Assembly (NCBI RefSeq): GCF_048403405.1
Contig: NZ_CP183129.1
Source: Escherichia coli
Lineage (GTDB): Bacteria > Pseudomonadota > Gammaproteobacteria > Enterobacterales > Enterobacteriaceae
DNA length: 64,000 nucleotides
Direction: 5' to 3' (one strand)
Every line of letters starts with the position of its first letter. Position 1 is the stretch's first letter. The notes beneath the pieces were generated by a model. That model was not told the origin of the DNA. It saw nothing but the letters and a program-made list of their open reading frames with translations, and ran no database searches. Positions 16,459 to 51,375 of this stretch are shown in pieces. A program made the translations under genes and the position numbers.

Positions 16459-17427
16459 TTACTTCTGATTCAGGCTGCCAGAGAGGATGCAGAATACCCC
16501 CATCAGGTCAGCGTGACGGATGGTGACTTCCGTCTTTTCATTCACTTTTGGCTTGGCATGGTAGGCAATCCCCAGCCCTGCCGCTTTGATCATCGGCAGG
16601 TCATTGGCTCCATCACCAATCGCCACGGTCTGCGCCAGCGGGATTTCATACTCCTGCGCGAGGCGAGTCAGAGTTTTCGCTTTGTACTGCGCGTCTACGA
16701 TGTCGCCGATCACATTGCCGGTAAATTTACCGTCCATGATCTCCAGTTCATTGGCTACCACGGCTGTCAGGCGCAGCTTGTCGCGCAGGTATTCAGCAAA
16801 GAAAGTAAAGCCGCCGGAGGCAATCGCCACTTTCCAGCCCAGCGTTTCCAGCTTGAGCACCAGTTGCGTTAAGCCTGGCATCAGCGGCAGATTTTCACGC
16901 ACCTGTTGCAGAATATTGGCGTCAGCGCCTTTCAGCGTCGCCACGCGGCTGCGCAGGCTGGCGGTAAAATCGAGTTCGCCGCGCATCGCCCGTTCGGTTA
17001 CCTCCGCCACCATCTCGCCCGTTCCGGCCAGTTTGGCAATTTCATCAATACATTCAATCTGGATGGCGGTGGAATCCATGTCCATCACCAGCAAACCCGG
17101 CGTGCGCAGGTGCGGGATTTTCCCCAGCGGCGCGACATCCAGCTGCGCTTCGTGGGCCAGGCGCGTAGCCCGCGCGGTGAGTGAACCTGCCAGACGAATC
17201 ACCTGATAATCTTCCACGCACCAGGCGGCAACAATCACCATCGCAGCGCCCAGTTTGCTCTGGTATTGGGTCAGACGTTGTTTATCCAGCCCACGACCAT
17301 ACAGCAGCCAGCCGCTACGACCTGCGTGGTAATCCAGTGGCATCACTTCATCACCACTTAATGAAAGAGGCAGACCCGGCCATAAAGAGACATCTTCAGG
17401 CAGGTCGCACCAGGTAATGTTAGGCAT
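16459..17427 (-). CDS. serB: phosphoserine phosphatase SerB
   Basis: 322 aa from MPNITWCDLPEDVSLW; HAD motif DMDSTAI; ORF track extends upstream into IS150-flanking DNA. Confidence 0.92.
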   Translation of the reverse strand: MPNITWCDLPEDVSLWPGLPLSLSGDEVMPLDYHAGRSGWLLYGRGLDKQRLTQYQSKLGAAMVIVAAWCVEDYQVIRLAGSLTARATRLAHEAQLDVAPLGKIPHLRTPGLLVMDMDSTAIQIECIDEIAKLAGTGEMVAEVTERAMRGELDFTASLRSRVATLKGADANILQQVRENLPLMPGLTQLVLKLETLGWKVAIASGGFTFFAEYLRDKLRLTAVVANELEIMDGKFTGNVIGDIVDAQYKAKTLTRLAQEYEIPLAQTVAIGDGANDLPMIKAAGLGIAYHAKPKVNEKTEVTIRHADLMGVFCILSGSLNQK

Positions 17428-17542
17428 TAAGGCTCCTGTAAAATCGTTCGAAGCAGGGAAAATAACGCATGAGGCTACCTTGTATCCATTGCTTCTGGCA
17501 ACATTAAGTCTCAAATTGTACTGACCCCAAAAAGTTGGACAG

Positions 17543-18394
17543 TTAAACACGAGGCATATAGGTCTGATTCCGATATTCAATTGGAGTCAGACCTTTTAAT
17601 TTCAGGCTAATTCTTCTGCTGTTGTAGTATTCAATATATTCCGTAACAGCATCCTTCAGTTCGCTTATATTACTGAACTCATCAAGATAAAAACACTCCG
17701 ACTTTAAGGTTCCAAAGAAACACTCCACCACAGCATTATCCAGACAATTGCCTTTTCTGGACATGCTTTGTTTAATACCATGTTCTTTAAGGATATTTTG
17801 ATATCTTCTCATACGATACTGCCATCCCTGGTCAGAGTGCAGAACAGGATGCTCGTGAGGATTAAGCTTTTTGAATGCCTGATCGAGCATATTCTCAACC
17901 ATGTTCATCACTGGTCTTTCCGAAAGGCTGTAAGAAATAACTTCGTTGTTGAAGAGATCTATTACTGGAGACAAATACAGCTTGCGCCCATTGACTACAA
18001 ATTCAGTAACATCGGTAACCCACTTCTCGTTTGGCCGCGTAGCCTTGAAATCTCTTTGGAGAACATTAGGGGCGGTTTGCCCTACCTCTCCTCTGTAAGA
18101 GCGGTATCGCTTGACCTTAATCGCTGCTTTAAGTGAGAGGGTTCCCATCAGGCGCTGAACAGCTTTATGGTTAATCTGTTTCCCTTCTCGATGAAGAGAC
18201 AGCGTTACCCTACGGTATCCGTATCGGCCTCTATTCTCGTGATAAATCTCACCAATACGCTTTTTAACGTCCGCATACTTGTCAGGCTTGCTGAGAGCCT
18301 TTAGATGGTAATAAAACGTACTGCGCGGTATCTCCGCAGCCCTGAGAAGCTCATCAAGAGGATAAAACTGCCTTAGCTCGTTGAGTACTTTTAC
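17543..18394 (-). CDS. insK: IS150 transposase orfB (InsK), expressed by -1 frameshift from orfA
   Basis: DDE-type integrase core (ORF track shows 201 aa C-terminal part from internal Met); upstream extent approximate. Confidence 0.8.
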
Positions 18395-18912
18395 TTTTTC
18401 GTGGGATGAGCTAAGGCTTTCAGCTTTTTTAGATACATAAGCCGCGTTTCAAGAAATCGAACTTGCCTTTCAAGATCCTCAATGCGTCGGTCTTTTGACA
18501 GCTCCAATGCTGATGCCGCTTTTTCTGGATCAACTGATATTGCAATGTTTCTTTTGGTGCCAATCTTGAGCGCGCGTAAACCAGCTTCTCCGCGCTCTTC
18601 ATAGACCTTCAGCCACCTGGCTACAGAACCACTACCAGCAAGCATAAAGTGAGCAGCAGCCTGATTAAGGGACATGTGCTGCTCGATCACAGCTTTCACG
18701 ACCTTAATACGCAACTCTGGATCAGCACTAACGCCTTTAGGTTTGGGAATTAAACCTTTTTCTCCATGTTTTTCATAGAGGGCAACCCATGTCCTGACCT
18801 GGGTTCGGGGGACACCAAAACGTGCCGAGATGATCCTGTAACCATCATCAGTTGTGAAGTAGTGATTCACGACTTCAAGGCGCTTTTCAAAAGGGTATTT
18901 TGGCTTTGACAT
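18391..18912 (-). CDS. insJ: IS150 transposase orfA (InsJ), HTH protein
   Basis: 173 aa MSKPKYPFEKRLEVVNHYFTTDDGYRIISARFGVPRTQVRTWVALYEKHG... Confidence 0.88.
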   Translation of the reverse strand: MSKPKYPFEKRLEVVNHYFTTDDGYRIISARFGVPRTQVRTWVALYEKHGEKGLIPKPKGVSADPELRIKVVKAVIEQHMSLNQAAAHFMLAGSGSVARWLKVYEERGEAGLRALKIGTKRNIAISVDPEKAASALELSKDRRIEDLERQVRFLETRLMYLKKLKALAHPTKK

Positions 18913-18978
18913 ATTAGGGGCTATTCCATTTCATCGTCCAACAAAATGGGTGCAGTACAAATTTTCAAAGGGTGGAAG

Positions 18979-19623
18979 ATGGCTCGCACAAAACTGAAAT
19001 TCCGGCTGCATCGGGCAGTGATTGTCCTGTTCTGTCTTGCCTTGTTAGTGGCGCTGATGCAGGGGGCGTCATGGTTTAGTCAAAACCACCAGCGTCAGCG
19101 TAATCCACAGCTGGAAGAACTGGCCCGCACCCTGGCGCGTCAGGTGACGCTGAACGTTGCACCGCTGATGCGTACCGACTCACCGGATGAAAAACGCATT
19201 CAGGCGATCCTCGATCAGTTAACGGATGAAAGCCGTATCCTCGACGCGGGCGTGTATGACGAACAAGGCGATCTTATCGCCCGTGCTGGCGAAAGCGTCG
19301 AAGTGCGCGACCGGTTGGCGCTCGACGGCAAAAAAGCGGGCGGCTATTTTAACCAGCAGATTGTCGAACCAATTGCGGGTAAAAACGGACCGCTCGGCTA
19401 TCTGCGCCTGACGCTCGACACCCATACGCTCGCTACCGAAGCCCAACAGGTGGATAACACCACTAACATTTTACGCCTGATGTTGCTGCTCTCACTGGCA
19501 ATCGGCGTAGTGCTGACCCGCACGCTGCTACAGGGTAAACGCACCCGCTGGCAGCAATCGCCCTTCCTGTTAACCGCCAGCAAACCGGTGCCGGAAGAGG
19601 AAGAAAGCGAGAAAAAAGAGTGA
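18979..19623 (+). CDS. ytjB: membrane protein YtjB (Smp)
   Basis: 214 aa from MARTKLKFRLHRAVIVLFCLALLVA; start lies 19 bp after the IS150 terminus. Confidence 0.88.
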   Translation: MARTKLKFRLHRAVIVLFCLALLVALMQGASWFSQNHQRQRNPQLEELARTLARQVTLNVAPLMRTDSPDEKRIQAILDQLTDESRILDAGVYDEQGDLIARAGESVEVRDRLALDGKKAGGYFNQQIVEPIAGKNGPLGYLRLTLDTHTLATEAQQVDNTTNILRLMLLLSLAIGVVLTRTLLQGKRTRWQQSPFLLTASKPVPEEEESEKKE

Positions 19624-37059: not shown

Positions 37060-39434
37060 TAGATTGACTCCCCCACCTGAGCATCAGTCAATGCCTTGTG
37101 CCATATTCTGAAATTCCTTACATGACCAAATAAATGACGTAACCCGGCTGTAGTCTGGCCTCCAATACGGATAATTGCGGTGTTCTGAATACAGGACCAT
37201 GTGGTTTTTGTTTCGCTGGATATACGCCCGTTACTTACTGCGCATGTAGACTGATCAGACTTTACACGCATCCCCATAACCATTTTTTCAAGTGATGCAT
37301 TTTCGTTTATCCGTCTGTTAGACCCACCAATATCGCAATAAGGAAATCCGTCGTAATCTGCTGAAGAACCGAAGCCAAGAATAATAGCCGCTCCGGTTTG
37401 ATGACCGCCGGTATCAAAAACACGCGGTGCTGCATTTGGCGTTTTATACCAGTTCTTATGTACCTCACAAAGAACCGTAAAAGGAAGATTATAAAGATTA
37501 TTCTTAATGGGAACTGTGACTATATCGCTTGCGCGGGTCGCCGCCGTCGTTCCTGATATAATAAAAGATGATACACAAGGCCCATTTTCTACTTGTGGGG
37601 TGGCCAGATAAATATAGTCACCAGATACGGTTGCCCCGCCCTGCTTAGGAGAATACTGTATCTGAGAACCTATTTTTAACTCCCCATCAATTGCCTGAAT
37701 TGTTGCCTCTGCAAAAATCCATCCGATAACTTCGTCCTTTCTGACTCTCGCTGTAATCCTTGAGGCAGCGCCGCCTGTCATATTAATTTCAAGCGTTTGT
37801 GTATCAATATACACATCACCAAGAAAAGTTGTTGCGCTACCGTCATATTTATCAAATCGGATACGCAACCTTACCTGCAGTTCTGTTTTAAAACGACATG
37901 AGGTTGTCACGTATTTATTATCGCCTGAGACATCAACTGACTTTGTTGCAGCAATTGATGCCATATTAATGGCTGAGGTTTGCCCAATCAGAGAATCGTT
38001 ACAGACAAACTTTCCATAGGTAAAACCAAAACTATCCGTCCCGGTTTCGGGAACATCCATATTTGACGATCGCCCCCAACTGGCAGGGCTTTCCGAATTG
38101 AGCATGTAGTTCGTTCTTTGCCCCTCAATAAGCAGGCCATCACGTTCAAACCGTGGCTCGTCAATGGCAGCCTCTGTCAGCACACCAGATTTATTAATAT
38201 AGGTTGCTTTCGATGCGCGTTTAAACTTAACAACCTTGTCGCCAGGCATCGTTATTTCATCATCACCAATAACAATCTTTTTATATGACGGCGAAAAGCC
38301 CGTAATCATATCCAGCGAATCGTTAAATGGTATCCACACATCAGGCAGCGGCTGTAAGACATATTTATACGGCTCCGCAGCCTGGCTTGCGTACTCTCTG
38401 GCTGCATCTTCGCTTGCTTTAGCTGCCGTCTGGCTTGCTGCCGATGCTTTCGCTGAGTTCGCAGCCGCTGTTTCGCTCACCTTTGCGTTGGTTTCACTGG
38501 TTTTTGCTGCTTTTTGACTGTTAGCTGATGCAGTGGCAGAAGCAGCAGCCGCGCTTGCAGAACCAGCTGCAGCACTCTCGCTTTCGGCTGCTGCATCCTG
38601 ACTGCTTTTCGCCGCAGTTTCGCTGGCTTTGGCATTCGTTTCGCTGGTCTTCGCTGCCGTCTGGCTGGACTTTGCGTTAGTTTCACTCGTCTTCGCTGCT
38701 TTCTGACTGTTAGCCGCAGCAGTTGCTGATCCAGCAGCTGAAGTCGCAGAACCGGCTGCCGCGCTCTCGCTTTCGGCTGCTGCATCCTGACTGCTTTTCG
38801 CCGCAGTTTCACTGGCTTTGGCATTCGTTTCGCTGGTTTTCGCTGCCGTCTGGCTGGACTTTGCGTTGGTTTCGCTCGTCTTTGCGGCTGTCTCGCTATT
38901 TTTCGCGTTGGTTTCTGATTTTTTGGCTGCTGTCGCGGAGTTTTCTGATGCAGTCTGTGAGGTCGCTGCCGCCTGTGCACTATTAGCTGCATTCGTTTCT
39001 GAGGTTTTCGCCGCGTTCTTCGATGATGCCGCTGCAGTTTCGGATTTCTTTGCCGCCGCTGCGCTCTGAGAGGCGGCTTCGGCGTTGCGTGCCGCTTCTT
39101 CCACCATTTCCTCAAAACGACGCAATGCCTCCGGCATGACATCATCTTCCGTCATGGCACCGAGAAAATCATTCAGCGTACCTGGTCTGGAACCTTCATA
39201 GACGGTAATGGTTCCGGCATGTGAAGGCGGAAAACCTTCAACAAGCAGGATAACGCTGTACTGGCCATACTCAACATCCATGCTGTAACGCCCGGCTTCA
39301 TCCGGATTTTCAGAGGCCACCGTGTTCACCAGTACCGTGGTGCTGTTACGCTTTGCCTTCAGTTGAATAGTGCAGTTCTGTATTGGTTTTCCCGCACCAT
39401 CTTTCAGCACACCTGAGATTTTTACTGCTGCCAT
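37059..39434 (-). CDS. stf: side tail fibre protein Stf (lambda-type N-terminus, divergent C-terminal receptor-binding part)
   Basis: N-terminus MAAVKISGVLKDGAGKPIQNCTIQLKAKRNSTTV... matches lambda Stf; Ala/Ser/Thr/Lys-rich repeats; C-terminal part resembles a lectin/LamG-like domain. Confidence 0.85.
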   Translation of the reverse strand: MAAVKISGVLKDGAGKPIQNCTIQLKAKRNSTTVLVNTVASENPDEAGRYSMDVEYGQYSVILLVEGFPPSHAGTITVYEGSRPGTLNDFLGAMTEDDVMPEALRRFEEMVEEAARNAEAASQSAAAAKKSETAAASSKNAAKTSETNAANSAQAAATSQTASENSATAAKKSETNAKNSETAAKTSETNAKSSQTAAKTSETNAKASETAAKSSQDAAAESESAAAGSATSAAGSATAAANSQKAAKTSETNAKSSQTAAKTSETNAKASETAAKSSQDAAAESESAAAGSASAAAASATASANSQKAAKTSETNAKVSETAAANSAKASAASQTAAKASEDAAREYASQAAEPYKYVLQPLPDVWIPFNDSLDMITGFSPSYKKIVIGDDEITMPGDKVVKFKRASKATYINKSGVLTEAAIDEPRFERDGLLIEGQRTNYMLNSESPASWGRSSNMDVPETGTDSFGFTYGKFVCNDSLIGQTSAINMASIAATKSVDVSGDNKYVTTSCRFKTELQVRLRIRFDKYDGSATTFLGDVYIDTQTLEINMTGGAASRITARVRKDEVIGWIFAEATIQAIDGELKIGSQIQYSPKQGGATVSGDYIYLATPQVENGPCVSSFIISGTTAATRASDIVTVPIKNNLYNLPFTVLCEVHKNWYKTPNAAPRVFDTGGHQTGAAIILGFGSSADYDGFPYCDIGGSNRRINENASLEKMVMGMRVKSDQSTCAVSNGRISSETKTTWSCIQNTAIIRIGGQTTAGLRHLFGHVRNFRIWHKALTDAQVGESI
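38560..38890. repeat. tandem duplication (about 186-bp unit) inside stf coding region
   Basis: Near-identical DNA blocks ...CTCGCTTTCGGCTGCTGCATCCTGACTGCTTTTCGCCGCAGTTTC... at about 38562-38700 and 38748-38890; protein repeat SETNAKSSQTAAKTSETNAKASETAAKSSQDAAAESESAAAGSA occurs twice. Confidence 0.8.
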
Positions 39435-50195: not shown

Positions 50196-50267
50196 ATCGT
50201 CCTCACATTTCAGGTGATGCTGCCAACTTACTGATTTAGTGTATGATGGTGTTTTTGAGGTGCTCCA

Positions 50268-50543
50268 GTGGCTTCTGTTTCTATCAGCTGTCCCTCCTGT
50301 TCAGCTACTGACGGGGTGGTGCGTAACGGCAAAAGCACCGCCGGACATCAGCGCTATCTCTGCTCTCACTGCCGTAAAACATGGCAACTGCAGTTCACTT
50401 ACACCGCTTCTCAACCCGGTACGCACCAGAAAATCATTGATATGGCCATGAATGGCGTTGGATGCCGGGCAACCGCCCGCATTATGGGCGTTGGCCTCAA
50501 CACGATTTTCCGCCATTTAAAAAACTCAGGCCGCAGTCGGTAA
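50268..50543 (+). CDS. insA: IS1 InsA
   Basis: 91 aa [43 protein letters not shown]... Confidence 0.9.
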
Positions 50544-50965
50544 CCTCGCGCATACAGCCGGGCAGTGACGTCATCGTCTGCGCGGAAATGGACGAACAGT
50601 GGGGATACGTCGGGGCTAAATCGCGCCAGCGCTGGCTGTTTTACGCGTATGACAGGCTCCGGAAGACGGTTGTTGCGCACGTATTCGGTGAACGCACTCT
50701 GGCCACACTGGAGCGTCTTCTAAGCCTGCTGTCGGCCTTTGAGGTCGTGGTATGGATGACGGATGGCTGGCCGCTGTATGAATCCCGCCTGAAGGGAAAG
50801 CTGCACGTAATCAGCAAGCGTTACACTCAGCGAATTGAGCGGCATAACCTGAATCTGAGACAACATCTGGCAAGGCTGGGACGGAAGTCACTGTCGTTCT
50901 CAAAATCGGTGGAGCTGCATGACAAGGTCATCGGGCATTATCTGAACATAAAACACTATCAGTAA
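50462..50965 (+). CDS. insB: IS1 InsB (transposase, made as InsAB by frameshift)
   Basis: 167 aa ORF overlapping insA in -1 frame. Confidence 0.9.
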
Positions 50966-51375
50966 GTTGGAGTCATTACCCACATTTCATAGGTAATGAC
51001 ATAAGTCAGATCGGCTGAACTCCACAGGCCCGCATCATCGTCGCGCCGGTAGTCATAGCCGCTGGCCACCATACTGGTGATCAAATCTGACAGTGCCGGG
51101 ATATCACTCATCACCGGATAAATCCGGGACTCCATCCACTCATCCAGCTCTGAATCCGGCACCTGAGCAGGCAGGAAAACTTCGATATGCAGCTCCGCCT
51201 GCCAGGTATCGCTGTCCAGCTCTTCGCCCGTGTATTCAGCGCCGGTGAGATAAACGGCAACTGCCGGAAAATCCGCCTCATCAAAAACAGCGGGGCGACC
51301 ATCAAAAAACGTCGCCCCGGTGTCATGCTTCTCCAGTGCATCCAGTACGGCTGCACGGAGTTCAGTATGTTTCAT
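50959..51375 (-). CDS. U: tail terminator protein U; C-terminus altered by IS1 (7 extra codons read into IS1)
   Basis: 138 aa [31 protein letters not shown]...; ends ...ITYEM then WVMTPTY encoded by the IS1 end. Confidence 0.88.

Follow-up and report, generated by a model that had tools for sequence, protein, structure and literature searches.

An IS150 element recently inserted between serB and ytjB in an Escherichia coli strain probably separates ytjB from its promoter

A complete IS150 between two divergent genes

We analyzed a window of 64,000 nucleotides of Escherichia coli DNA (assembly GCF_048403405.1, contig NZ_CP183129.1), in which the divergent genes serB and ytjB are separated by a mobile element. 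The phosphoserine phosphatase gene serB is intact and lies on the minus strand (16459..17427); it is recognized by its Pfam HAD domain and is annotated in strains MS 69-1 and MG1655. On the plus strand, ytjB (also named smp) encodes a YtjB family periplasmic protein (18979..19623; NCBIfam NF008419, 424 bits), and its intact coding sequence shows 0 mismatches to that of MS 69-1. According to the annotation of MS 69-1 and MG1655, the native intergenic region between the two genes measures 105 bp. In the window, this region is interrupted by a complete IS150 of 1,443 bp on the minus strand (17517-18959), with the transposase reading from right to left in window coordinates. The element starts exactly at position 17517 with TGTACTGACCCC..., which is the right terminal inverted repeat (IRR) as read on the plus strand, and it ends at position 18959 with ...GGGTGCAGTACA, the left terminal inverted repeat (IRL). 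The first-pass annotation of this DNA had assigned the interval 17517-18978 to the insertion. Its start is exact, but its end is not: position 18978 directly precedes the ATG of ytjB, and the interval had taken in the 19-bp native leader of ytjB, consisting of one AAT copy and 16 bp. The distances given there agree with our measurements: the ATG of ytjB (18979) is 19 bp away and that of serB (17427, minus strand) 89 bp.

The earlier assignment to IS150 is confirmed by sequence comparison. Many complete E. coli genomes contain copies, annotated as 'IS3-like element IS150 family transposase', that match the element at 100% identity over its full length. We also compared it to the annotated IS150 of K-12 MG1655 (mobile_genetic_element; IS3 family, IS150 subgroup; insJ/insK, hokA-sokA), with which it shares the length, the repeats, the orfA/orfB layout and an A AAA AAG site followed by a stem-loop. 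The two copies differ by four substitutions, one of them a GTG to GTA change, and 0 indels (1,439/1,443 bases identical), and they occupy different chromosomal sites. The terminal repeats (TGTACTG... and ...CAGTACA), which had been described as intact, are the natural imperfect repeats of IS150. Alignment of both ends places IRL at 18929..18959 on the ytjB side and IRR at 17517..17547 facing serB (both minus strand), with 22 of 31 positions complementary, the same as in the K-12 copy. The left-end (IRL) sequence has a single occurrence within the window. Of the 5,426 complete E. coli genomes, 2,864 contain IS150, at a median of 2 places each and at no more than 14.

The coding part of the element consists of orfA (InsA/insJ; 18391..18912, minus strand), which encodes a helix-turn-helix protein of 173 aa (Pfam HTH_28), and of the orfB frame (InsB/insK; 17543..18394, minus strand), which contains the DDE integrase core (Pfam rve, rve_2 and HTH_21) and would be expressed as an InsAB fusion. 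A slippery heptamer for programmed -1 frameshifting, A AAA AAG, is located at 18424..18430 on the minus strand, in X XXY YYZ register relative to orfA. It is followed after 6 nt by a stem-loop with a 10-bp perfect stem (18370..18417, minus strand), detected both as an inverted repeat and by RNA folding (-18.3 kcal/mol, z = -3.8). Fused by the -1 frameshift, the two frames form an uninterrupted reading frame of 456 aa that contains the Pfam domains HTH_28 (10-60), HTH_21 (216-269), rve (292-390, full length) and rve_2; the fusion scores 413 bits against NCBIfam NF033516 'IS3 family transposase' (cut-off 160). The allele carries GTA at 18392-18394 (IS150 position 566-568), where K-12 has GTG as the annotated start of insK (InsB), and consequently the open reading frame list of the window shows only a 201-aa piece of orfB. 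A separate InsB could not start at this GTA, and the InsAB fusion is predicted to be unaffected. The GTA-for-GTG allele is found in identical form in many natural isolates. With orfA, the orfB frame, the frameshift site with its stem-loop and the fused transposase all intact, the element looks functional. In all defining features that can be tested in a sequence, it is IS150 proper and not a variant.

Target site, age and possible origin of the insertion

The first-pass annotation had reported a 3-bp AAT target duplication, and an AAT triplet indeed stands on both sides of the element (left copy, 17514..17516; right copy, 18960..18962). We rebuilt the empty site by deleting the IS together with one AAT, and compared the resulting 455 nt with complete E. 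coli genomes. The reconstruction is 100% identical over 455 nt to 9 genomes among the matches listed, and the serB-ytjB site is uninterrupted in 5,424 of the 5,426 complete genomes. Because removing one AAT along with the IS restores an exact match to the empty site, the duplication is real and not a chance 3-mer. In K-12 coordinates, the duplicated triplet corresponds to 4,624,806-4,624,808. Target duplications of IS150 are usually 3-4 bp long. The insertion would have been made by the usual IS3-type transposition, yielding the 3-bp AAT duplication.

We next consider the age of the insertion, which had been called relatively recent and which proves to be so in comparison with IS-free strains. 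In the closest relatives, MS 69-1 and isolate 68 (OX030728.1), both flanks are 100% identical to those in the window and the site is empty. To the right of the IS, window and MS 69-1 show 0 mismatches over 32,024 bp. Searched with a query that covered both junctions, the 5,426 complete E. coli genomes gave no case of the IS at this site (0 matched 80% or more of the query), and the left junction and the right junction each had 0 matches in metagenome contigs. Identical flanks around an empty site indicate that the insertion postdates the split from these near-identical sequenced relatives. A copy that is new with respect to near-identical genomes is indirect evidence that IS150 transposes, or did so until recently, in this lineage. 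An ancestral insertion lost elsewhere by precise excision has a vanishingly small probability: nothing speaks specifically for it, the uninterrupted site with a single AAT is the state of those 5,424 genomes and of other genera as well, and the IS is missing from the near-identical relatives. IS3-family elements rarely excise precisely. The distribution across genomes effectively refutes an ancestral origin.

The uniqueness of the insertion could also be explained by an assembly artefact, in which a multi-copy IS150 had been misplaced into the serB-ytjB region. Such an error would be consistent with the number of IS150 copies in related genomes (median 2, up to 14 places), and with an insertion that is seen nowhere else, neither in the 5,426 complete genomes nor in metagenome contigs. 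However, the junctions are base-precise, with an exact 3-bp duplication that would not arise by misassembly, and the duplication flanking the IS150 in OX030728.1 is also 3 bp long. We therefore regard an artefact as highly improbable and treat the insertion as genuine and recent.

A possible donor is found in the near-identical relative OX030728.1, whose hokA/sokA locus contains an exact copy (1,443/1,443) of the same IS150 allele, flanked by a 3-bp CTT duplication. This copy could have been the source of the element at serB-ytjB. The hokA/sokA insertions themselves differ between strains: the left flanks of the IS150 copies in OX030728.1 (locus L033, 1511-2953) and in MG1655 (locus L003, 1134-2576) are unrelated, and their right flanks are offset by 1-2 nt. 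These junction differences suggest independent insertions or a rearrangement at the known hok/sok hotspot.

Predicted effects on ytjB and serB

We then asked what the insertion may mean for the two adjacent genes. Promoter positions discussed below are predictions. A standard promoter scan returned no more sites than were found in shuffled controls, and none at the IS junctions. We therefore used a more permissive, heuristic position weight matrix (PWM) of our own in combination with conservation, and treated its output as leads only. No experimental start sites for serB or ytjB (smp) were found in the Cappable-seq and SMRT-Cappable-seq supplements, nor in the supplements of Kim et al. 2012 and Mendoza-Vargas et al. 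2009, in the text covered. A full-text literature search returned nothing relevant on the serB promoter, on serB together with smp, or on IS150 together with serB. An Rfam scan of positions 17200-19300 gave only a chance match to a miRNA model, far below its gathering score, and no known RNA element in the intergenic region or the IS. Mechanically called open reading frames run in frame into both IS ends, with ytjB extended to an ATG at 18946 and serB to a TTG at 17580. These extensions (18946-18978 and 17428-17580, respectively) have no ribosome-binding site, are not in frame with orfB, and are probably meaningless.

The first-pass annotation had proposed that the native ytjB promoter is displaced, and the geometry of the locus bears this out. 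Only 19 native bp are left upstream of the ytjB ATG (18960..18978, plus strand), and this leader contains the Shine-Dalgarno sequence GGTGGAAG only. With no more native DNA than this, the ytjB promoter must be displaced, and an intergenic promoter, wherever it is placed, is now at least 1.45 kb distant. We aligned the serB-ytjB region of 27 sequences from Escherichia, Citrobacter and Salmonella, and found that the IS splits a block, GAAAATTTGAGrCTTAATGTTGCCAGAAG, that is invariant in the 27 sequences from the three genera. It is thus likely that functional control DNA has been interrupted. On inspection by eye, we rejected the conserved block as a sigma-54 or sigma-E promoter, because neither spacing nor motifs fit. 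TTGCTT-17-CAAATT is a weak candidate for the ytjB promoter: Citrobacter and Salmonella do not conserve its -35, and transcription from it would be predicted to start within the Shine-Dalgarno sequence.

RNA made from the displaced promoter of ytjB would run into the IS in antisense orientation and would meet, within ~80 nt, a terminator-like hairpin. This structure is located at 17560..17594 on the plus strand, antisense to the transposase, and consists of a 15-bp stem followed by TTTTAATTT (RNA fold -24.6 kcal/mol, z = -5.9); its function as a terminator is proposed from the fold. The hairpin may also shield the element from transcription entering past its right end, and we found no description of a hairpin on the antisense strand of the IS150 3' end in the papers examined. 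Expression of ytjB would then be reduced to the weak transcription, if any, that leads out of the left end of the IS. Our best estimate from these features is that ytjB is strongly down-regulated.

The insertion could instead be neutral for expression, with ytjB transcribed from an outward promoter in the left end of the IS and serB from its retained native promoter. A suitable candidate, TTGACA-17-TTTCAT, is located at 18906..18934 on the plus strand and faces ytjB, with a predicted start ~38 nt upstream of the ytjB ATG. By chance, a PWM score as high as its 9.09 is expected less than once per kb, and the TTGACA -35 could keep ytjB expressed; a candidate serB promoter is retained as well (see below). 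The -35 is perfect, but the -10 lacks the near-invariant A at position 2. In addition, wild-type 150-bp ends of IS150, the left end included, show no detectable promoter activity on either strand in a reporter assay, and it was for this reason that Fuqua and Wagner picked them (PMC12095673). We thus consider a neutral insertion unlikely, and favor a loss of most ytjB expression. The gene just downstream, lplA, need not share the fate of ytjB, because an RpoD-binding site of its own is listed in the lplA-ytjB spacer (PMC3946193).

On the serB side, 89 bp of native upstream DNA are retained (17428..17516, minus strand). By heuristic PWM and conservation, the best core promoter candidate in this segment is TTGCCA-18-TAGCCT (17501-17472), no part of which extends beyond the retained DNA. 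In the 27 sequences from three genera, the two hexamers do not change whereas the spacer does, as would be expected of a real promoter. As this candidate is retained, the insertion is less likely to disable serB than ytjB. A conserved A/T-rich stretch just upstream of the candidate -35 is cut by the IS, and an upstream promoter element or regulator site of serB may thus be lost. The serB leader of Escherichia (17428-17470) is ~12 nt shorter than that of Citrobacter and Salmonella, the difference being located between the conserved TTTTCC and CGAACGATTTTACAGGAG. Elsewhere, the 105-bp intergenic region is nearly invariant across the three genera.

Transcription from the element may also act on serB. 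The 3' end of IS150 faces serB, and we found no terminator-like site on the minus strand between orfB and serB; outward or read-through transcription from the IS 3' end may hence reach the gene. Published reports on outward promoters of IS150 disagree. In one study the 3' end contains a modest outward-facing promoter, and 12 of 55 downstream regions were significantly up (PMC11101190); in the other, no activity was seen from 150-bp ends (PMC12095673). At the junction itself, the IS end TACA and the target bases AT form the hexamer TACAAT (17515..17520, minus strand), which we regard as a speculative hybrid -10 toward serB. The corresponding promoter match, CTGTCC-16-TACAAT, scores 7.56, a value that occurs ~1-2 times per kb per strand by chance, and its -35 is poor. 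From the retained sequence, serB is probably still expressed, and a modest change either way is possible. The altered serB expression raised in the first-pass annotation may thus be a reasonable reading.

It could be argued that the insertion is adaptive, either because a hybrid promoter (TACAAT, or TTGGGG with TAATGT) or read-through raises serB (and radA), or because silencing of ytjB was selected. The junction match at 7.56, a second combination of an IRR -35 with flanking DNA (TTGGGG-18-TAATGT, score 5.76), the missing terminator-like site between orfB and serB, and the modest downstream transcription from IS150 3' ends (PMC11101190) would all be consistent with such an effect. However, comparable scores arise 1-3 times per kb by chance and the -35 partners are poor, the reported outward effects of IS150 are modest and inconsistent (PMC11101190, PMC12095673), and the insertion is found in one genome only, so that there is no parallelism to suggest selection. 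We consider an adaptive change decidedly unlikely. The specific case of a selected rewiring, in which the TACAAT promoter or read-through raises serB-radA expression while ytjB is silenced, seems very unlikely; if true, it would provide a natural ytjB knock-down for finding the function of ytjB.

Taken together, our findings make us highly confident that a recent, standard and apparently transposition-competent IS150 interrupts the 105 bp of divergent control DNA that serB and ytjB share, is missing from this site in every genome it was compared with, and probably cuts ytjB off from its promoter.

Related insertions and other features of the window

We compared the serB-ytjB insertion to other IS150 insertions for which effects have been reported. 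Copies that arose in the Lenski long-term evolution experiment (upstream of mraZ, and in 'proto-gene' cases) are likewise located in intergenic or promoter DNA, and they either separate a gene from its promoter or provide modest transcription from the 3' end (PMC4301190, PMC11101190). Those cases come from E. coli B and are accompanied by expression data and population frequencies, whereas ours is a single copy in a natural lineage, known by its sequence. Hybrid and outward promoters, in which an IS supplies the -35 and the target the -10, have been reviewed (PMC12095673). The right end of our element resembles them in facing serB, in its -35-like hexamers and in the TACAAT junction. This likeness consists of consensus matches with modest scores, and wild-type IS150 ends are inactive in the reporter (PMC12095673).

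Insertion of IS150 into promoter regions is already a well-documented class of mutation. What is new here is the insertion site alone, for which the 5,426 complete genomes show no counterpart. The insertion is an ordinary strain-specific IS polymorphism, of little significance beyond strain-level annotation. It provides a clean marker that distinguishes the strain from MS 69-1, isolate 68 (OX030728.1) and TUM1226, the sequenced strains closest to it, and it probably makes the strain a natural hypomorph for ytjB, a conserved gene whose function is not known. The insertion is also relevant to work in this strain on serine or lipoate physiology, or on the expression of serB-radA and ytjB-lplA.

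Several other features were observed in the window. Between lplA and deoD, a short helix-turn-helix gene (20,699-~20,960) is annotated as 'frameshifted' in MS 69-1, and in several other strains the lplA-deoD region contains the HipA-family toxin gene yjjJ. Beyond prfC, a lambdoid prophage extends over ~33,100-64,000, with tail genes, gpJ and a tape-measure protein followed by head and terminase genes, and it carries an IS1 at ~50,214-50,981. Identity with MS 69-1 extends to the end of this IS1 (50,981); there, the IS1 of MS 69-1 adjoins a truncated integrase and lacks the head and terminase DNA found next to it in the window. The difference looks like an IS1-adjacent deletion. TUM1226 retains the whole prophage region at 100% identity. 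Finally, the prophage tail-fibre gene contains a repeated stretch of 224 bp (38,481-38,893), with 88% identity between the repeats and an offset of 189 bp.
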